Below, one piece after another: positions 3,278 to 63,762 of a stretch of DNA of 64,000 nt (its first letter is position 1; the number at the start of each line of letters is the position of its first letter). A program made the translations under genes and the position numbers. A model generated the notes under the pieces. It was not told the DNA's origin and did no database searches. It saw nothing but the letters and a program-made list of their open reading frames with translations. Source of the DNA: Acidobacteriota bacterium (GTDB taxonomy: Bacteria; Acidobacteriota; Thermoanaerobaculia; Multivoradales; Multivoraceae); the NCBI GenBank assembly GCA_011525365.1, contig WTGQ01000002.1, positions 3,745,941 through 3,809,940 on the forward strand, given 5' to 3'.

Positions 3278-4156
3278 ATGTCGGCAGACCCAACCTCTGG
3301 AGAACCAGCGCGACCGCCGATTTCGGCCCTCGTGACCACCTACAACGAGGAGCGTCACATTGCCGACTGCCTGGCGTCCCTCGACTGGTGCGACGAAGTG
3401 CTCGTCGTCGACTCGTTCTCCACCGACCGCACGCCGGAGATCGTGCGCCAGTGCGAGCGCGCCCGCTTCGTCCAGCGCACCTACTACGGTTCCGCGTCGC
3501 AGAAGAACTGGGCCATGGACCAGACGCGGAACGAGTGGGTGCTGATTCTCGACGCCGACGAACGCTGCACACCCGAACTCCGGGCGGAAGTCACGGCGCT
3601 GTTTTGCAACGGAGAGCCGGCCCACGACGCGTACACGATCAAGCGCCGCGTGTTCTTCCTGGACAGGGTGATCCGCTTCTCCGGCTGGCAGCACGACCGC
3701 GTCGTCCGGCTGCTGCGCCGCGACGCGGGCCGGTACCCGAACCGGCGCGTACACGCCGACATGTGGACCCGGACGCCGGCGCCGGTGCTCCGGTGTCCCA
3801 TGGACCACTTCATGGTCGACGACCTGCTTTCCTACTCCCGGAGGATCCAGCGCTACAGTTGGTGGGGTGCCGCCCAGCTCTGGCGCGACGGCCGCCGGTC
3901 CGGCCCGGCCGAGGTCCTGGGGCGCTCGCTGTGGCGCTTCCTGCGCACCTACGGCCTGCAGCTCGGCGTGCTCGACGGCATGCGCGGTCTCGTGTTCTGC
4001 CTGCTCCAGGCCTATGGCACGTACCTCAAGTGGTCCTACGTATGGTCGTGGCGCGTGAACCAGCGGCGCGGCATCGAGCCGCCGCTGCCGTCCTTCGACG
4101 ACAGCAAGAGCACCTGGCGGGGCCTGACCGAGCTCGAGCCCGGAACCGCCAAGTAG
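3278..4156 (+). CDS. Family 2 glycosyltransferase (LPS-core type)
   Basis: ISALVTTYNEERHI...VLVVDSFSTD...LILDADE is a GT-A fold signature with a DxD motif. Start chosen at the Met (MSADPTS) that avoids overlap with the divergent PagL-like gene. Confidence 0.75.
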   Translation: MSADPTSGEPARPPISALVTTYNEERHIADCLASLDWCDEVLVVDSFSTDRTPEIVRQCERARFVQRTYYGSASQKNWAMDQTRNEWVLILDADERCTPELRAEVTALFCNGEPAHDAYTIKRRVFFLDRVIRFSGWQHDRVVRLLRRDAGRYPNRRVHADMWTRTPAPVLRCPMDHFMVDDLLSYSRRIQRYSWWGAAQLWRDGRRSGPAEVLGRSLWRFLRTYGLQLGVLDGMRGLVFCLLQAYGTYLKWSYVWSWRVNQRRGIEPPLPSFDDSKSTWRGLTELEPGTAK

Positions 4157-4174
4157 CAGGTCGCCGCGGCCGCG

Positions 4175-4960
4175 TCAGTCGACCGGGAGCAGCAGCGACT
4201 CGATCCTCGAGGCCCTGCCCGTCGCCTCGTCCGCGTCGACGAGGGCGGCCGCCAGCCGGACATCCCGCCTGGCGACCTCGAAGCCGGCAGGCGTGTTCAG
4301 GAGAAAGCGCTTGAGCGCCCGGTCGGCGCGCACGCCGATCACCGAGTCGTAGGGACCGGTCATGCCAACGTCCGTCACCAGTGCCGTGCCCTGCGGCAGG
4401 ACGCGGGCGTCGGCGGTTGGCACGTGGGTGTGGGTGCCGAGCACCGCGGTCACCCTGCCGTCCAGGTGGTAGGCGAACGCCTGCTTCTCGCTCGTCGCCT
4501 CGGCGTGGAAGTCGACCAGGACGATGCGGATCGCCGGATCCAGGTCGGCCAGGATGGAGTCGGCGGCGGCGAACGGCGAGGGCAGCGGCTTCATGAAGGT
4601 CTGACCCTCCAGGTTGATCACCGCGTACGGCGTCCCCACCGGCAACTCGCCGACGAAGACCCCCACTCCGGGGTTCCCTTCCGGGTAGTTCGCGGGCCGC
4701 AGCAGGTTCGGGATCCGGTCGTAGTACGGCACGCCCTCCTTTTTCGCCCAGGCGTGGTTGCCGGTCGTCATGCAGTCGATCGGCAGGTCCGAGAGCTCCT
4801 TGAGCACCCCGGGCGTTACACCGCTGCCGCCGGCCGCGTTCTCGACGTTGACGACGGCCGCGTCGACCCGGTGGCGGTCGATCAGCTCGGGCAGCAGCCG
4901 GGACAGCGCTCGCCGCCCCGGCTTGCCGACCACGTCGCCGACGAAGAGGAACCGGGCCAT
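4175..4960 (-). CDS. ymdB: YmdB-like metallophosphoesterase (TIGR00282)
   Basis: MARFLFVGDVVGKPGR...GNHAW...GTHTHVPTAD are calcineurin-like phosphoesterase motifs. Lies immediately downstream of rny, as in the conserved rny-ymdB operon. Confidence 0.85.
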   Translation of the reverse strand: MARFLFVGDVVGKPGRRALSRLLPELIDRHRVDAAVVNVENAAGGSGVTPGVLKELSDLPIDCMTTGNHAWAKKEGVPYYDRIPNLLRPANYPEGNPGVGVFVGELPVGTPYAVINLEGQTFMKPLPSPFAAADSILADLDPAIRIVLVDFHAEATSEKQAFAYHLDGRVTAVLGTHTHVPTADARVLPQGTALVTDVGMTGPYDSVIGVRADRALKRFLLNTPAGFEVARRDVRLAAALVDADEATGRASRIESLLLPVD

Positions 4961-6544: not shown

Positions 6545-6770
6545 CTCAATCCGGGCAGAAGGGCATCCCCCGCGGGGCCGTGTGAACGCGCCCCGACACA
6601 GAACCAGAGCGGGACCAGGTGGGTGTCCGCGCCACCCGCCGTCAGCGTCCCCGTTCGAGCGGGGCTGGCACGGGCGAGCAGTTGAAGGACTCCCTTAACA
6701 AGAGCGATGGTTCCAACCACGGCTTTCATCACGAACCGCGCAGGGGATGCAAGGTCAAAGTTCCTTTCAG
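6545..6770 (-). ncRNA. ssrS: Putative 6S RNA (ssrS) candidate
   Basis: ~230-nt non-coding gap immediately downstream of zapA on the same strand; zapA-ssrS synteny is widely conserved. The call rests on context only and the secondary structure was not verified. Confidence 0.25.
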
Positions 6771-22531: not shown

Positions 22532-23119
22532 TCAGTCGGTGAGGTAGTCGGCCAGCCGGGCCTTCAGCATCCGGCGGCCGCGAAACAACTTGTTCTTCAC
22601 GGTGCCCAGGGGCATGCCCTTGAACTCCGCGATCTCTTCGTAGGTCATCTCGGCGAAGTGTCTCAACTGAATCAACTCGCGGTACTCCTCTTTCAGCCCG
22701 TCGATCGCGGCGCCGATGGCCTGGCGCCGTTCCACGTTCCGCAGCGTCCGGTAGGGGTCCCTTTCCTCGCTCTCAAACTCCCGCTCATGCGCCTTTCCGT
22801 CCACCCCGACCCGCTGCATCGGAACCAGCTTCAGGCGCCGTTTACGGATCAGGTCGATCGCGGCGTTCTTCGCCACCCGAAACAGCCAGGTCGAGAACCG
22901 GTACTTGGGGTTGTAACGGTCGAGGGCCCGGTAGACCCTCAGAAACACTTCCTGCGAAAGCTCTTCGGACTCCTGAACGTTGCCGAGGAAGCGATTCAGG
23001 TAGTTGATCAACCGGCCCCGATACCTCTCCACGAGATCGGTGTACAGGGCGGCTTCGCCGTCCAGAATCGCAGTCACCAACTCTTCGTCGGTCGCCCGAG
23101 TTGCCTCCACAGCCTTCAC
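22532..23119 (-). CDS. ECF-type RNA polymerase sigma-70 factor
   Basis: Sigma-70 region 2 (FLRVYRALDRYNPKYRFSTWLFRVAKNAAID) and region 4 (LPLGTVKNKLFRGRRML). Confidence 0.85.
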   Translation of the reverse strand: MKAVEATRATDEELVTAILDGEAALYTDLVERYRGRLINYLNRFLGNVQESEELSQEVFLRVYRALDRYNPKYRFSTWLFRVAKNAAIDLIRKRRLKLVPMQRVGVDGKAHEREFESEERDPYRTLRNVERRQAIGAAIDGLKEEYRELIQLRHFAEMTYEEIAEFKGMPLGTVKNKLFRGRRMLKARLADYLTD

Positions 23120-32781: not shown

Positions 32782-34449
32782 TTACTTGCGATCCTCGGTC
32801 CGAATCAACCGTGCCTGCGCTTCCGCCGCGGCCAGAACGACCGCCGACTCCGTGGCGTTCGCGTCGTAGTAGCCGACGAAGCGGTTAGTTTCGAAGGCGT
32901 CGTAGTCGGCCAGGTTGCGGGCCCAGCGATAGCCGATCGTCTGGAACAGGAGGCGGGCCGACACGGTGACGGCCGTGACCCCGGCGGCAACCGGGAAGCG
33001 GTAGCGAACCGTGTCGTTGCCGGCCACGAAGTCCGGGTCGCCGGCAGCCGCTCCGAGTACCGCCACGTCGCCGGGCGCCGACGCCTTGTCGAAGCCGTCC
33101 GGCAGCAGGCGGTTGTCCTTCGCGTAGCGGACACCCCGCAGCAGCGCCGTCGTCACCCGGTCCGCGTGGTCGACGATGATCGACTCGTAGATCTGGACCT
33201 GATCGGGCCCCGAGATCTCGGCATGGTGCGGCTCGAAGGCGCCCGGGTCGGCGTCGTTGTCGTTGCCGGCGATCGACCCGTCCGGCCGCATCGCCCCCGA
33301 CTCGAAGAGAACGCCGCCGTTCTGGTCGCGGACCGTCAGGTGGAGCCAGGCCCGGCGCGACGGGTAGGCGGTCGGCAGCTTGTGGCCGGCGAGGTTCCGG
33401 ACCTCGACGTCGACGACGACTTCGCCGGGCTCGAGACGCAGATCGATACGGTCGATCTTCGCCGTGTCGTTGCGGAGGTGCTCGGCCGTCCGCGCAGCCG
33501 ACGCTTCGAGTTCGTCGGACGGCGCCGTCACGTTCAGTTCGTCCCGGTACCGGTTGAGCAGGCGCAGCATGAAGGCGTTGCCGCCGCGGAAAGCGTGAAG
33601 CGAGAGTCCCTCCCGCTGCTCGCCCAGCACCGACGAGATCGGCGCCTCCGCCGCCACCGGCATGTGGCAGTCCTGGCAGCTCTGGTCGCCGCGGTAGCCG
33701 CTGTTGAGCCACTCGAGGTACGGCACCTGCTCGGGCAGCCGGCCGACCTCACGGCCCTCCTCGTCGAGGGCGGTCGTGAACAGGGTGTGGCAGGTGGCGC
33801 AGAGCTCCGACTCCTGGATATGCGCGCCGGCCGCGGGCTGGAAGCCGGAGGCGGACTCCATGATCCGCTGCAGCCCCTCGTCGAGATCGTCGAAGGGTCC
33901 GAAGGCGGTCGCCACGCCCGCCTCGGGGCCGCCGACGAGAAAGCCGCCGTCGAAGCTCTCGTGCTCGCCCAGGTTGTCCGGGCGGATCTGGTGGCAGACG
34001 GTGCAGGAAACGCCGTCGAGCGCGGCCGCCACGTCCGGTCCCACTGCGGCATCCGGGCCCAGATGCGCGAAGACCTCGCCGAGCCCGCCCGCGGCCTTCG
34101 CCGCCGTCCTCGCCATCGGCATGTGACAGGTGGAACAGGTGTCCTCGATCGCCGCCTGACGTTCCGGCTGATCCATCACTTCGCGCCGGACCGCCGCCTG
34201 CCAGTAGGGATCGCGTGCCGAGTTGGCCATCATCGTCGCCCGCCAGGCGTGACCGATCGAGACGTCCTGGCCGTCCGCGTCCGTCAGGTTGCTGTGACAG
34301 GCGATGCACTGGTCCGACGTCTCGAACACGGGCGCCGCAGCAGGCGCCGGACCCTGCGCAATCGCCACGGACGACACGAAGAGCCCGAGAAGCGCCGGCG
34401 CCAGCCGGCGGCCCGCGAGGCGCGCGCGGAACCGAACGTCACCAGCCAT
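32782..34449 (-). CDS. Secreted pentaheme c-type cytochrome
   Basis: Signal peptide and five CxxCH motifs (CIACH, CSTCH, CTVCH, CATCH, CQDCH) in 555 aa. Confidence 0.8.
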   Translation of the reverse strand: MAGDVRFRARLAGRRLAPALLGLFVSSVAIAQGPAPAAAPVFETSDQCIACHSNLTDADGQDVSIGHAWRATMMANSARDPYWQAAVRREVMDQPERQAAIEDTCSTCHMPMARTAAKAAGGLGEVFAHLGPDAAVGPDVAAALDGVSCTVCHQIRPDNLGEHESFDGGFLVGGPEAGVATAFGPFDDLDEGLQRIMESASGFQPAAGAHIQESELCATCHTLFTTALDEEGREVGRLPEQVPYLEWLNSGYRGDQSCQDCHMPVAAEAPISSVLGEQREGLSLHAFRGGNAFMLRLLNRYRDELNVTAPSDELEASAARTAEHLRNDTAKIDRIDLRLEPGEVVVDVEVRNLAGHKLPTAYPSRRAWLHLTVRDQNGGVLFESGAMRPDGSIAGNDNDADPGAFEPHHAEISGPDQVQIYESIIVDHADRVTTALLRGVRYAKDNRLLPDGFDKASAPGDVAVLGAAAGDPDFVAGNDTVRYRFPVAAGVTAVTVSARLLFQTIGYRWARNLADYDAFETNRFVGYYDANATESAVVLAAAEAQARLIRTEDRK

Positions 34450-35548
34450 CCAGGAACCCTCCGTCGAACCAGTCCCAGAGCAGGTAGACGACGGCCTGCA
34501 CGCCGCGGTCCTCGTCGTCGTCGAGAGGAAAGCGGACGCCCGCGTTCAGCAGGATGTGCTGCCGGGTGTTCAGGCTCACCTGCACCTGCGGCGCGAGGTC
34601 GACCTCGACCGACGCCCCCGAGGCCAGGCCGCGCTCCGCCAGGATTTCGAGCATCGGCGTCCACGCCCGGCCGAACTCGCCTTCGGTCCAGGTGCGCCCG
34701 ATCGTCATCCGCAGTTCCGCCTTGTCGCCGGCGTCGCCGTCCACCGCGATCTCGCCCAGGGCCTGGAACTGGAGGAAGGCGTCGCCGGGGAGGAGATGCC
34801 CGTAGGCCGCGTACGGTTCGAACACGGTGACGCGATCGTCGGAGCCGTCGTCGCCCTCCGTCCGCACCAGCACCGCCTCGGCCCCCAGGCTGAAGATCGA
34901 GCCGCGCCGCAGGTCGTGGTGAACGGTGTGCTTGTAGCCGAGCGCCAGGTCGCCCAGGTCGAAGCCGCTCCCGGCGTCGCCGTGTTCGACCGGGACCGCC
35001 ACCTCGATCATCCCCCGCGGGCCGAACCGCTTCTCGTACAGGAACTCCGTCTCCGTGCCGCCGCCGCCGTCCGTGTCGGCGAGCACCGTCACGACGATCT
35101 CGTCCTCGGGGAACGCCTTCTCGGTGAACAGCGGCCGGGGCAGATTGAACTCGCCCCGGGGCCAGGCGTCGTTGACGCAGAACGTCCGCACGTGACGGAG
35201 AATCGAGAAGATCTCCGCTTCGCCCAGCTTGGCCCCGAACGCCGGCATCATCCGGTCGAAGGCCCGGACGGGGCCGCCTTCGTGGATCACGGCGTACCAG
35301 TCGGGGTCCGGCTCCCGCGAGGCGAACTCGCAGTCGGTGAAGTCGGGGAGCGGGGTCTCGAAGCCGACTTCCCGCTGCGGCCGGCCCCGGCCGTCGTCGC
35401 CGTGGCAGGCGGCGCAGGCGCGGGTGTAGAGGTCCGCGTCGCTCGCCGGCTGGGCCAGGGCCGCCGCCGGCAGCAGCAGGGACAGGACCGCGACAAACCG
35501 GGAAAGCGCTTCCAAGTAGCGCTCAGCGTAGCAGCGCGACCCGCGCAC
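34439..35548 (-). CDS. Monoheme cytochrome c domain fused to a C-terminal acidic domain ending in W (possible beta-barrel/OM-associated)
   Basis: GTG start right after the thiE stop. Signal-like segment LSRFVAVLSLLLPAAALAQ, CAACH heme motif, then a ~250-aa D/E/G-rich domain ending ...FDGGFLDGW. The stop overlaps the start of the pentaheme cytochrome gene by 11 nt. Confidence 0.6.
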   Translation of the reverse strand: MRGSRCYAERYLEALSRFVAVLSLLLPAAALAQPASDADLYTRACAACHGDDGRGRPQREVGFETPLPDFTDCEFASREPDPDWYAVIHEGGPVRAFDRMMPAFGAKLGEAEIFSILRHVRTFCVNDAWPRGEFNLPRPLFTEKAFPEDEIVVTVLADTDGGGGTETEFLYEKRFGPRGMIEVAVPVEHGDAGSGFDLGDLALGYKHTVHHDLRRGSIFSLGAEAVLVRTEGDDGSDDRVTVFEPYAAYGHLLPGDAFLQFQALGEIAVDGDAGDKAELRMTIGRTWTEGEFGRAWTPMLEILAERGLASGASVEVDLAPQVQVSLNTRQHILLNAGVRFPLDDDEDRGVQAVVYLLWDWFDGGFLDGW

Positions 35549-59852: not shown

Positions 59853-61061
59853 CTAGAGGGGCAGCACCTCGCAGGACTCCCCGGCCACGGCCGGGGCGCT
59901 GAACTTCGGCACCCGCACCAGGCCCGAACCTGCTCCGTACGCAACCAGGTCGTGGGAGCCCAGCGGCGGCCGCGGGTCGACCAGCACTTCGCCGGACGAG
60001 ACCTCCAGCCGGCACGGCAGGAACCGGTCCCGGCCTTTGGCGAACGGCAGGTCTCCCTTGAGCCTCCCGCGGAGCGCTCCCCGCCAGAAGCCGTCGGCAA
60101 TGCCGGCCATCCGCCGAAGCAGCGGCCGCACCAGGAGCCAGTAGGTGACCATCGCCGAAGCGGGGTTGCCGGGAAGGCCGAACACCCATCCTCGATCATG
60201 GCGCGCCGCCACCAGCGGTTTCCCCGGCTGGATCGCGACCGCGTCGAACAGGATGCGGCAGCCCAGGCCGGTGTCGCCGAGAACCTGCTCGACGAAGTCG
60301 AACTCGCCCATGGAAACGCCGCCGGAGATCAACAGCACGTCGGAGTCCAGCCCGCGCTCGACCTTGGCGCGTAGCTCGTCCGGGTCGTCGCGGGCGATGC
60401 CCAGGGATCGAGCCTCGATGCCGAGCTGTGCCAGCGCGGCGCGGAGGAAGTCACGGTGGGAGTCGCGGAGCTGACCGGGACCGGGTTCAGCCTCGGCGGG
60501 GACGACCTCGTCGCCGGTGGAGAGCGTGGCGACGGTCGGGCGGCGGTAGACCGGCGCTTCGTGGATGCCGTGGGTCGCCAGCACGCCGGCGCCGCCGGGG
60601 GTCAGCAGTTCACCCTCCGCGAGCAGTGGCCCGCCGGCAGCCGTGACTTCGGCCTGGCGGCGGATGTGGCTTCCCGCCGGCACCGTCTCCACGATGCGGA
60701 GGGTGCCCGTGCCTGCGTCGCCGGCCTCGAACTCGGTCTGTTCGATCGGGATCACGCGGTCGGCGCCGGAGGGTGCGGGCGCTCCGGTCATGATCCGCAG
60801 GGCAGCGCCGGAGAGGAGTTCCGCTCCGGGAGGGTCGCCGGCGGCGACGATGCCGTCGACCGGCAGCGTGCCGCCCGCCTCGACATCGCCGCCAAGCGCG
60901 AAACCGTCCATCGCCGAGACGTCGTGGGCAGGCACGTCGACGGTCGCGGTCAGGTCCTCGGCGAGGACCCGGCCGACCGCAGCGGCGCGCGCCACCTGTT
61001 CGATGCCGAGCGTTTCCGCCTCCGTGGCGATGGCGGACCAGGCGTCTTCGGGAGAGAGCAT
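59853..61061 (-). CDS. moeA: Molybdopterin molybdenumtransferase
   Basis: MoeA N-terminal, MoCF-binding (GGVSMGEFD) and C-terminal domains; 402 aa. Confidence 0.85.
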   Translation of the reverse strand: MLSPEDAWSAIATEAETLGIEQVARAAAVGRVLAEDLTATVDVPAHDVSAMDGFALGGDVEAGGTLPVDGIVAAGDPPGAELLSGAALRIMTGAPAPSGADRVIPIEQTEFEAGDAGTGTLRIVETVPAGSHIRRQAEVTAAGGPLLAEGELLTPGGAGVLATHGIHEAPVYRRPTVATLSTGDEVVPAEAEPGPGQLRDSHRDFLRAALAQLGIEARSLGIARDDPDELRAKVERGLDSDVLLISGGVSMGEFDFVEQVLGDTGLGCRILFDAVAIQPGKPLVAARHDRGWVFGLPGNPASAMVTYWLLVRPLLRRMAGIADGFWRGALRGRLKGDLPFAKGRDRFLPCRLEVSSGEVLVDPRPPLGSHDLVAYGAGSGLVRVPKFSAPAVAGESCEVLPL

Positions 61062-61182: not shown

Positions 61183-61527
61183 ATGCCCCTGTACGAGTAC
61201 CAGTGCACCGAGTGCGAGGCGACCCTGGAGGCCATCCAGGCGTTCTCCGCGCCGCCGCTCGAGGAGTGCCCCGAGTGCGGCCGGTCCAGCCTCAAGAAGC
61301 TGCTCTCGGCCCCCGCGTTCCAGTTCAAGGGCAGCGGATGGTACGTCAACGACTACGCTCGCAAGGACAACGGCAACGGCAAGAAGTCCGACGGCGACGC
61401 CACCAACGGCAAGCCGGCCACCTCCGAAGCGTCGTCGGACCAGGGCAAGAAGTCGGACCAGGGCAAGAAGTCGAGCGACTCGACGTCCTCGAAGAGCGAA
61501 ACCTCAAACTCCGCCGCTACGCCATAG
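61183..61527 (+). CDS. FmdB-family zinc-ribbon protein with Ser/Lys-rich tail
   Basis: MPLYEYQCTECEATLE...CPECG matches the FmdB CxxC-x(n)-CxxC pattern. Confidence 0.7.
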   Translation: MPLYEYQCTECEATLEAIQAFSAPPLEECPECGRSSLKKLLSAPAFQFKGSGWYVNDYARKDNGNGKKSDGDATNGKPATSEASSDQGKKSDQGKKSSDSTSSKSETSNSAATP

Positions 61528-61589
61528 CGGCAGCGAGACCGGGTCCGCACGGCGTTGACACGAATCTCGTGTTCTCCTAGTCTCGTGCC

Positions 61590-61832
61590 GTGAAGAACAT
61601 CACCGTCACCCTGCCTGAAGAGGACGCGCTCTGGGTCCGCGTTCGCGCCGCCGAGAACGGGCGCAGCGTTTCGCGCTGGTTGGCCGATCTGCTCCAGGGA
61701 ATGAGGCGTCAGGAAGATCGCTACGAGGTCGCCATGGAACGGGCCCTCGCCATCGAGCCCGAGCCGCTCAACCAGAGCGGGAATGCGTACCCCTCCCGCG
61801 ATTCGCTCCACGACCGTGACGGTCTTCGTTGA
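61590..61832 (+). CDS. vapB: Ribbon-helix-helix antitoxin (VapB-like)
   Basis: 80 aa; ITVTLPEEDALWVRVRAAENGRSVSRWLADLL is an RHH/CopG-type fold. Immediately upstream of a PIN-domain gene. Confidence 0.65.
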   Translation: MKNITVTLPEEDALWVRVRAAENGRSVSRWLADLLQGMRRQEDRYEVAMERALAIEPEPLNQSGNAYPSRDSLHDRDGLR

Positions 61833-62274
61833 CACGAACGTCCTCGTCTACAGGCACGATTCGTCCGATCCGGCGAAGCAGGCCCGTGCCGACGAGTGGT
61901 ACGCCTACCTCTGGCGCAGCCGCACCGCGCGGCTGAGCGTTCAGGTCCTGCAGGAGCTCTACGCCACCCTCTCGCGGAAGCTGAAACCGGGCATGGAGGC
62001 CGACAAAGCCCGGCGGATCGTGCGGGCCCTGGGCGCCTGGGAGCCGGTAGGAATCGATCTTGCGATGATCGAGAAGGCTTGGATCCTCGAACAGCGCAAC
62101 TCGCTCTCCTGGTGGGACGCACTGATCGTGGCGGCTGCGCAGACGTCCGAGTGCGAGATCCTCCTGACCGAGGACCTGCAGGACGGCCAGACGTTCGGAG
62201 GACTCCGGGTCGTCAATCCGTTCGCGTCGGCCAGCCTGACGCCGGAAGAGGTCCTCCGCGCGGCTACGGAATGA
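61816..62274 (+). CDS. vapC: PIN-domain ribonuclease toxin (VapC-like)
   Basis: VFVDTNVLVY...D acidic residues in PIN positions. GTG at 61816 overlaps the vapB stop by 17 nt; the ATG at 61783 is the alternative start. Confidence 0.75.
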   Translation: MTVFVDTNVLVYRHDSSDPAKQARADEWYAYLWRSRTARLSVQVLQELYATLSRKLKPGMEADKARRIVRALGAWEPVGIDLAMIEKAWILEQRNSLSWWDALIVAAAQTSECEILLTEDLQDGQTFGGLRVVNPFASASLTPEEVLRAATE

Positions 62275-62289
62275 ACTGCGGCCCGGCGC

Positions 62290-62389
62290 TTGGCGGAAGC
62301 GCATGGGAATCGAACCCACCCCCGGAGACGCATCACGCCCCGGACAACGGTTTTGAAGACCGCAGGAGGCACCAGCCCCCGAGCGCTTC
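62290..62389 (-). tRNA. selC: tRNA-Sec (selenocysteine, anticodon UCA)
   Basis: Manual fold on the minus strand gives an 8-bp acceptor stem (GGAAGCGC/GCGCTTCC), a 6-bp D-stem with 4-nt loop (GGGGGC-TGGT-GCCTCC), an anticodon loop CTTCAAA (anticodon UCA), a long variable arm, a T-arm GTGGG-TTCGATT-CCCAT, discriminator G and an encoded CCA. Length ~100 nt, as for bacterial tRNA-Sec. Confidence 0.75.
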
Positions 62390-62443
62390 CGCGGTCAGCA
62401 TATCCTCGGCCCTCCGACCCGGAACCAAACGAGGAACACCGTC

Positions 62444-63043
62444 ATGACGATCCCGATCGCCGGCCCGCGGGGCCGGGCACCAGCTCTCGGTCTCACGCTC
62501 CTGCTGCTGGCGTGCGGCGCCGACGCCCCGGCTGAGGGGGGAGGCGCCCAGGAGGCCACGGCGGCCGTCGAGCTCTCCGAGCCGATCAGCGCCAACGGAC
62601 TGTCAATCGCCCTTCCCGCGGCATGGAATCGCCTCGAGCCCAGGTCGGCGATGCGCATGCTCGAAGCCGAGATCCCGGGCTCGGGCGGTGCGGGGGAGAT
62701 CTCGGCGTACTACTTCGGGCCCGGCGGGGGCGGCGGCGCGGCGGCAAACGTCGAGCGCTGGAAGAGCCAGGTCGTCCTCGAACCCGGCGCCCCGGAACCC
62801 ACTACGCAGAGCCGCGAGAGCGGCGGCGTCCGCCGCACCTGGATCGAGCTGGAGGGAACGGTCAAGGCGAGCACGATCGGCAGCTTCCCGACGACCGACC
62901 TGCACGATGGAGCGCTCTTCGGGGCGGTGATCGAAGCGCCCGGCGGCCCCTGGTATCTACGCGCCGTGGGCCCGGGCGCGACGATGCGCGAGCAGCGTCA
63001 GGCCTTCCTGGCGATGCTCGACAGCGCGCGACCCGAAGGCTAG
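62444..63043 (+). CDS. Lipoprotein, unknown function
   Basis: Lipobox LTLLLLACGADAP and a Gly-rich segment; 199 aa. Confidence 0.5.
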   Translation: MTIPIAGPRGRAPALGLTLLLLACGADAPAEGGGAQEATAAVELSEPISANGLSIALPAAWNRLEPRSAMRMLEAEIPGSGGAGEISAYYFGPGGGGGAAANVERWKSQVVLEPGAPEPTTQSRESGGVRRTWIELEGTVKASTIGSFPTTDLHDGALFGAVIEAPGGPWYLRAVGPGATMREQRQAFLAMLDSARPEG

Positions 63044-63097: not shown

Positions 63098-63173
<76 letters not shown>

Positions 63174-63210: not shown

Positions 63211-63762
63211 TCAGAAGTGGTACGCCACTCCGGCGTGAACCGTGGCGTGGGTGCTGGAGGCGTCGAGGTCCGCGTAGTGGCCCACCAGCTCGACCACTAC
63301 CGAGAACCGCTCGTTGATCGGAAAGTCGCCCGTCACGCCCAGGGTCAGGCCGACTCCCTCGTCGCTCTCGACGCCGTCGTCGAGCTGGTACACGCCGAGA
63401 CCCATGAACACGCCCGATTCGTAGTAGAGGTCGTTGAAACGGTATTCGCCCGCGATCGTCGCGTAGCGGAAAGTGGGGCTGGCCAAAGTGCCGACCTGGT
63501 CGCCGCTGAGATCCATGCTGCCGAGGCGGACGCCGACCGAAGTGCGCGGCTGGGTCCGCCAGGAGAAGCTCGCCAGGAACCCCGCGTGGTCGAGGCCGCC
63601 GTCTGGCTCTCCATCCACGCTGCCGCCGAAGCTCGGTCCGAGCGAGAGGGTGTAGCTGTATTGCCCCTGGGCGCCGGCGCTCGCCGCGCCCGCGAGCAGC
63701 ATGAGGACTGTCGCCAGCGCGGGCACGACGGCGGCGCGAAGCTTTCGTTTCCGTGACGTCAA
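63211..63762 (-). CDS. Small outer-membrane beta-barrel protein (OmpA/OmpW-like barrel family)
   Basis: Signal peptide, alternating hydrophobic beta-strand pattern and a C-terminal ...GVAYHF aromatic terminus. Confidence 0.65.
   Translation of the reverse strand: MTSRKRKLRAAVVPALATVLMLLAGAASAGAQGQYSYTLSLGPSFGGSVDGEPDGGLDHAGFLASFSWRTQPRTSVGVRLGSMDLSGDQVGTLASPTFRYATIAGEYRFNDLYYESGVFMGLGVYQLDDGVESDEGVGLTLGVTGDFPINERFSVVVELVGHYADLDASSTHATVHAGVAYHF

Follow-up and report, generated by a model that had tools for sequence, protein, structure and literature searches.

A canonical selenocysteine tRNA gene with conserved and variable flanks in an uncultured Thermoanaerobaculia bacterium

The window examined here, by which we mean the whole 64,000-nt stretch of contig WTGQ01000002.1 (assembly GCA_011525365.1), comes from the lineage Acidobacteriota; Thermoanaerobaculia; Ca. 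Multivoradales. Close to its high-coordinate end lies a gene for selenocysteine tRNA (tRNA-Sec; selC), with a lipoprotein gene diverging from its 5′ end and a PIN-domain toxin gene converging on its 3′ end. Gene calls were self-trained and gave 63 genes in the window; the features at and around selC are as follows, with the basis of each call in parentheses.

59853..61061, minus strand: MoeA, molybdopterin molybdotransferase (PF03453, PF00994, PF03454)
61183..61527, plus strand: g59, FmdB-family zinc-ribbon protein (PF09723; TIGR02605 at 73.5 bits; synteny)
61521..62283, no strand: 763-nt segment with the toxin-antitoxin pair (blastn junctions against L053, L004, L032, L074 and L076)
61590..61832, plus strand: 80-aa open reading frame, putative ribbon-helix-helix (VapB-like) antitoxin (gene call; sub-threshold matches)
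61816..62274, plus strand: PIN-domain (VapC-like) toxin gene (PF01850, 50 bits against a cutoff of 23.6)
62291..62390, minus strand: tRNA-Sec gene (selC), 100 nt with CCA (ARAGORN, RF01852, minimum free energy fold, covariation)
62391..62443, no strand: 53-nt spacer from the tRNA-Sec 5′ end to the divergent g62 start codon (coordinates)
62444..63043, plus strand: g62, orphan lipoprotein of 199 aa with lipobox Cys24 and a predicted PsbP/Mog1-like fold (alignment, AlphaFold model)
63098..63173, minus strand: tRNA-Ala(GGC), in the orientation of selC and some 0.7 kb upstream of it (ARAGORN, Rfam)

Identity and structure of the tRNA-Sec gene

Run over the whole window, ARAGORN found four tRNA genes, one of which is a tRNA-SeC with anticodon tca on the minus strand at 62291-62390. 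The Rfam scan, made at gathering thresholds with only the best of overlapping clan members kept, matched RF01852 at 62295-62390 on the same strand with 74.1 bits (gathering score 47; E = 2.5e-13), and the match spans model positions 1-91 of 91 without truncation. Because clan overlaps were reduced to the best member, the tRNA-Sec model here beats the generic tRNA model RF00005. An earlier note, made from the letters of the window, had proposed a tRNA-Sec (UCA) gene at 62290-62389; the gene is there, although its coordinates lie one base further on and its strand, which the note did not state, is minus. The proposed identity itself is borne out by the agreement of the ARAGORN call, the RF01852 score, the computed cloverleaf and covariation among relatives.

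The structural hallmarks that had been read by eye (an 8-bp acceptor stem, a 6-bp D-stem with a 4-nt loop, anticodon UCA, a long variable arm and a discriminator G) are likewise seen in the sequence, in the fold and in covariation. The acceptor stem has 8 bp (GGAAGCGC/GCGCUUCC) and is followed by a 2-nt linker, UC, and by a 6-bp D-stem (GGGGGC/GCCUCC, including one G-U) that closes the 4-nt D-loop UGGU. The anticodon UCA lies at 62354-62356 within the loop CUUCAAA, where ARAGORN places it at position 35, on a 5-bp stem topped by a U-U as the sixth, outermost pair. The variable arm of about 24 nt pairs as 5 + 5 bp with a bulge, and the T-stem (GUGGG/CCCAU) has 5 bp and no bulge, giving an 8/5 fold with a 13-bp acceptor/T helix. 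The discriminator G73 is at 62294 and the CCA is encoded at 62293-62291. In RNAfold both the minimum free energy and the centroid structure are the 8/5 cloverleaf, at −51.4 kcal/mol (z = −2.9), and none of 200 shuffled sequences folded as stably.

These features are those described for bacterial tRNA-Sec, namely the 8/5 fold, the 13-bp AT helix, the 6-bp D-stem, the 4-nt D-loop and G73; the CCA is encoded in 93% of bacterial tRNA-Sec genes, and the genes range from 90 to 101 nt (PMC5330540). In comparison with E. coli selC (b3658), 60 of 100 aligned columns are identical, among them the opening five bases (GGAAG) and the 3′ end, CUUCCGCCA; the two genes also share UCA, the 8/5 fold with its 13-bp helix, the 6-bp D-stem and 4-nt D-loop, the long variable arm, G73 and CCA. 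At 100 nt against 95 nt, the window gene exceeds that of E. coli through an extended variable arm (in relatives a helix of up to 10 bp), and its length is at the upper end of the published range (PMC5330540). It also differs from E. coli selC in the U-U at the outermost anticodon-stem pair.

Two other readings of the feature may be weighed. One is a mis-called type-2 tRNA, for serine or leucine, or a chance cloverleaf, and a long variable arm together with G73 is indeed also found in tRNA-Ser. The 6-bp D-stem, the 4-nt loop and the 8-bp acceptor stem are nevertheless incompatible with tRNA-Ser or tRNA-Leu, the anticodon is UCA, RF01852 was kept over RF00005, and the stability of the fold was matched by no shuffle; the ARAGORN call, the clan competition and the minimum free energy fold together rule out the Ser/Leu mis-call, and we regard this whole class of explanation as extremely improbable. 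The earlier note had named a covariance-model assignment to tRNA-Ser, tRNA-Leu or a pseudogene as the outcome that would speak against it, and the full-length RF01852 match kept in clan competition offers no such refutation.

The second possibility is a look-alike UGA decoder, that is, a selC*-type tRNA-Cys(UCA) or an allo-tRNA that inserts cysteine or serine instead of selenocysteine. Acidobacteria are among the sources from which allo-tRNAs have been described, and the anticodon of a selC* tRNA can be UCA (PMC7609411). The selC* tRNA-Cys, however, has an 8/4 fold, an A51a bulge and U73 (PMC7609411), from which the unbulged 5-bp T-stem and G73 of the window gene set it apart, while the acceptor branch of allo-tRNAs has 12 bp, in an 8/4 or 9/3 arrangement (PMC7609411; PMC5389517), as opposed to the 13 bp (8/5) found here. 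The gene moreover matches the tRNA-Sec model end to end, and no selB* or cysS* gene lies downstream of it in the window. A look-alike decoder thus has next to no probability in our assessment. All the sequence-level features of tRNA-Sec that were tested (UCA, the 8/5 fold, the D-arm, the long variable arm, G73/CCA and the covariance-model score) are present, and the feature is a real, canonical bacterial selC (tRNA-Sec, UCA) of a known kind, belonging to an RNA family of long standing that routine annotation programs pick up.

Conservation of selC and of the divergent gene g62

Relatives were collected by scanning species-representative genomes with the 28-nt core of selC formed by the D-arm and anticodon arm. 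This core was found in 81 stretches of species-level genomes, and the labels of the metagenome-assembled genomes (MAGs) concerned are Thermoanaerobaculia, ‘Candidatus Multivorans’, Holophagales, Vicinamibacteraceae and Acidobacteriota. The closest relatives share about 92% DNA identity with the last 6 kb of the window, and none of the representative genomes can therefore be of the same species. ARAGORN called tRNA-SeC in 78 of the 81 loci; in two of the other three the gene runs into the end of the locus.

We scored an alignment of 30 distinct 100-nt selC sequences against the cloverleaf. Paired cells amounted to 97.0%, compared with 48-62% when the 3′ partners were slid by 1-3 columns, and none of 500 shuffles equalled the observed covariation score. 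Changes on both sides were found in nine pairs, eight of them among the ten pairs of the variable arm; the acceptor stem contributed one compensatory change from CG to UA. Pairing is complete (100%) in the acceptor, D, anticodon and T helices of the 30 sequences, and G73, the CCA, the T-arm and the D-arm are invariant, with the proviso that the 3′ half of the D-arm and the anticodon arm are unable to show covariation because they were fixed by the search pattern. The compensatory changes, together with the conserved structure, indicate that selC is under purifying selection across the class and is not a relic. The best explanation of the locus is a functional selC of an uncultured Thermoanaerobaculia (Acidobacteriota) bacterium, a reading to which we assign a probability of about 0.93.

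A few relatives depart from a single intact copy. The MAG MFD09779.bin.1.69 (loci L046 and L057) has two tRNA-Sec copies on different contigs, of 4.7 Mb and 31.6 kb, the T-loop of the second being mutated (GGGTGCGA). In another relative (L081), a 5′ tRNA-Sec fragment (nt 1-45) lies 570 nt upstream of the full copy.

On its 5′ side, selC is paired with g62. The earlier note had placed selC next to lipoprotein genes, and this holds for 62444-63043 on the plus strand, which has a conserved lipobox cysteine; the gene at 63211-63762 encodes a signal peptide without a lipobox. The g62 protein has no Pfam or NCBIfam match. Its family comprises 101 clusters, all labelled hypothetical and without a Pfam domain; wherever an organism is named, it belongs to the Acidobacteriota. 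In its members the conserved lipobox cysteine is followed by a low-complexity linker, which leads to a domain of about 140 aa; Gly/Trp motifs are strongly conserved in this domain, and there is no cysteine besides that of the lipobox. The AlphaFold model of g62 (pLDDT 88) has PsbP chains as its top Foldseek matches, with E-values down to 1e-6 and TM-scores of about 0.5-0.6. The predicted fold thus resembles the alpha-beta sandwiches of the PsbP/Mog1/DcrB type, with g62 itself predicted to be exported and lipid-anchored; sequence identity to PsbP is 9-16%, and no shared functional residue was identified. As modelled, the PsbP/Mog1 similarity is that of a generic extracytoplasmic fold and implies no function.

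The pairing of the two genes is widespread. Of the 68 loci with enough flanking sequence, 49 have a g62-family reading frame directly upstream of selC and without exception divergent from it, and between two genome configurations the whole g62-selC-g59 block is inverted. Four distant members of the g62 family were picked via the protein and not via the tRNA, independently of the selC-based sampling; in three of these four loci a tRNA-Sec lies 48-700 nt from the g62 homologue. In one of them the homologue follows the tRNA at 48 nt in the same direction, with MoeA and a MobA-like gene adjoining. Pairing was seen in relatives L003-L083 and L090-L092; the most distant g62 homologue (L089) is without an adjacent selC.

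As selC and g62 are usually divergent and about 50 nt apart, they must share a promoter region, and the 53-nt spacer of the window would hold or overlap the promoters of both. A consensus scan around selC gave no match to a sigma-70 promoter or a terminator. One might propose that g62 is co-regulated with tRNA-Sec and is a new envelope accessory factor, either for the acquisition of selenium (or Mo/W) or for the biogenesis of a selenoenzyme such as formate dehydrogenase. We consider this improbable: the fold search yields the generic PsbP/Mog1 fold and lends a selenium role no support. A pairing merely frozen by overlapping promoters is more likely than such an accessory factor.

Other neighbours recur in the relatives as well. 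Synteny places g59 in the conserved neighbourhood of selC, 31 of the 81 selC loci of relatives also have tRNA-Ala(GGC), and of the 17 loci with at least 3 kb on both sides, 11 have MoeA no more than 3 kb from selC. In L091, MoeA (1284-2492) and a MobA-like NTP_transf_3 gene (4130-4756) are near selC. The proximity of MoeA may be a thematic link to molybdopterin selenoenzymes, formate dehydrogenase for example.

The variable 3′ flank of selC

Between selC and g59 the window carries the toxin-antitoxin segment. The PIN gene is convergent with selC, its stop codon 16 nt from the 3′ end of the tRNA, and is overlapped by 17 nt on its upstream side by the 80-aa reading frame. A small reading frame overlapping a toxin gene is an arrangement typical of type II toxin-antitoxin pairs, and VapBC and FitAB modules likewise have a PIN toxin after a small overlapping frame with faint ribbon-helix-helix similarity. 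Unlike VapBC, the toxin of the window stays far under the NCBIfam VapC cutoff (TIGR00028, a weak match of 19.6 bits against 73.6), and the antitoxin frame passes no family threshold: its matches, all below threshold, include FitA-like_RHH (E = 0.041) and RHH_5 (E = 0.083). The VapBC pair that the earlier note had placed beside selC therefore stands as far as its PIN toxin is concerned (PF01850), while its antitoxin half is weak (RHH E = 0.04-0.08). ‘VapBC-like’ is a reasonable description of the toxin and a tentative one of the antitoxin.

The segment varies among relatives. In five of them (L053, L004, L032, L074 and L076), the toxin-antitoxin pair is missing and g59 follows directly after selC, at a distance of between 15 and about 250 nt. 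Their match to the window picks up again at about 61520-61535, and in comparison with L053 the window has 763 nt in place of 15 nt. The pair recurs in L047 and L059 at another site, between MoeA and g57, with 93-99% protein identity, and among the loci compared other relatives (L011, L042, L072, L077) have unrelated inserts of 1.3-4.7 kb at the selC/g59 site. The GC content of the 763-nt cassette is 66%, which is native. No flanking repeat or target duplication was found around it. Within the insert between selC and g59 there is no partial copy of the tRNA longer than 12 nt, and anywhere in the window none longer than 17 nt, the 17-nt match being the T-arm of tRNA-Ala. Pfam detected no integrase domain among the neighbours g54-g63.

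In Enterobacteria, selC is an integration hotspot for islands, with LEE, SHI-2 and PAI-I at the selC of E. coli and Shigella. The locus in this lineage is similar in that the 3′ flank is hypervariable, with inserts of 0.76 to 4.7 kb between selC and g59 among relatives, and in that many relatives have partial direct copies of the 3′ part of the tRNA. It is unlike the enterobacterial islands in that the window holds just a 763-nt cassette, without an integrase, a 3′ repeat of the tRNA or a large island. A classical integrase-borne tRNA island is ruled out by the lack of a tRNA repeat, a target duplication and an integrase in the window. Judged from these sequence comparisons, the putative toxin-antitoxin pair is a small lineage-variable cassette at an apparently recombination-prone 3′ flank of selC.

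Truncated copies of the tRNA are a separate observation in the relatives. Many of them have one to three tandem units of 77-83 nt directly after selC; there are none in the window. Such a unit is made up of a degenerate anticodon arm, in which UCA persists, together with the variable and T arms, the 3′ strand of the acceptor and GCCA; units of this kind occur in L040 (oriented 101-331), L013, L008, L030, L045, L047, L059, L074, L076, L036 and L039. No element lies between the tandem units; they were probably left as scars when site-specific recombination struck selC repeatedly. Other relatives have copies of the tRNA 3′ end at 1-4 kb from selC. Finally, a contig from another sample with an identical g62 protein (L002, BPAM22-1 scaffold_1844) ends 153 nt before g62, at the tRNA-Sec; this break is consistent with strain-level structural variation that breaks assemblies at the 3′ flank of selC.

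Probable selenocysteine decoding and other features of the window

The presence of tRNA-Sec serves as a genomic marker of the selenocysteine (Sec) trait and was recorded in about 28% of bacterial genomes (2316 of 8233; PMC5330540), and SelC together with SelB are signatures of Sec decoding (PMC1273633). Selenoproteins are documented in Acidobacteria (PMC1794560; PMC12013277; PMC13582414) and have been listed there since 2006, so that the selC of the window challenges nothing known.

We searched the window and 10 kb beyond each edge with the E. coli SelA, SelB and SelD proteins, and tblastn gave no match there, nor in any of the 81 relatives' selC loci. The searched window and flanks amount to 84 kb, less than 2% of the genome (about 4-5 Mb in closed relatives), and the result therefore speaks for an absence of linkage to the sel genes, not for their absence from the genome. 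The selC gene is thus unlinked to the Sec machinery in this lineage; that of E. coli is likewise unlinked to selAB. Among the 20 window genes compared with Pfam, which were g54-g63 and ten of a size expected for SelA, SelB or SelD, there were no sel genes.

Selenoprotein genes were sought in the same stretches. A six-frame scan of the window for TGA codons flanked by coding-like codon-position GC content found no gene with an in-frame TGA. The one same-frame TGA junction with a good coding signal on both sides, at 22532, appears from its sequence to be the C-terminus of a sigma factor followed by a separate anti-sigma-like gene with its own start. In about 650 kb of the relatives' DNA, a self-trained codon model gave eight TGA candidates, all of which are adjacent gene pairs. 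In the window, Rfam gave no SECIS match at or above the gathering score. A RAST label in the supplementary tables of a marine Thermoanaerobaculia study, ‘AhpC/Tsa ... selenocysteine-containing’, is too weak to serve as evidence. TGA is the stop codon of 33 of the 63 called genes and the commonest ordinary stop in this genome, so that any insertion of Sec must be site-specific and dependent on SECIS and SelB, and not a codon reassignment.

One may postulate a scenario in which selC is an orphan or relic, selA and selB having been lost, such that the tRNA no longer inserts selenocysteine. The 84 kb without sel genes, their absence beside selC in relatives, and the lack of a selenoprotein candidate in the window or in the 650 kb of relatives' DNA all fit this scenario. 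The gene is intact in nearly all of the relatives, however, and the helix of its variable arm is kept by compensatory changes; the invariance of G73, the CCA, the T-arm and the D-arm is a pattern of purifying selection and not of decay; the search covered a small fraction of the genome; and tRNA-Sec presence is itself used as a marker of the trait (PMC5330540). A relic is accordingly very improbable. That the organism likely uses Sec, as the earlier note had proposed, gains indirect backing from the intact selC in 78 of 81 loci, the compensatory changes, G73 with CCA and the literature, and on this sequence-based footing we consider it highly probable that the organism decodes Sec.

If so, the established bacterial pathway suggests how the gene would act. 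The selC transcript would be processed to the 100-nt tRNA, which seryl-tRNA synthetase, guided by two identity elements (G73 and the long variable arm), would charge with serine. SelA would then turn the serine into selenocysteine with selenophosphate from SelD, and SelB-GTP, recognising the 13-bp acceptor/T helix, would bring the tRNA to in-frame UGA codons that have a SECIS hairpin after them. Formate dehydrogenase is the most widespread bacterial selenoprotein, and the MoeA gene near selC hints, speculatively, at a molybdopterin formate dehydrogenase as a likely client. The selC gene is also a warning that automatic annotation of this and related genomes could cut short or split the genes of selenoproteins, in particular those of redox proteins and of formate dehydrogenase alpha subunits; its retention across relatives suggests that the Sec trait is widely kept in Thermoanaerobaculia.

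Several features elsewhere in the window deserve mention in their own right. A full-length 6S RNA (SsrS) lies at 6563-6749 on the minus strand (RF00013, 68 bits against a gathering score of 46.4), just past the low-coordinate end of the ZapA gene and beside the start of RNase Y. At 8049-11897 on the minus strand, a large protein of 1239-1282 aa combines leucine-rich repeats with a weak Peptidase_M66 (StcE-like metalloprotease) domain, a combination that is unusual for the genome of a free-living member of the Acidobacteriota, and the GC content of this region is slightly lower (0.65-0.66). Two adjoining c-type cytochrome genes occupy 32782-35548 on the minus strand; one product, of 555 aa, has several sub-threshold matches to multihaem cytochromes, including MtrC/MtrF-like domains, and the other, of 369 aa, matches cbb3-type cytochrome c.
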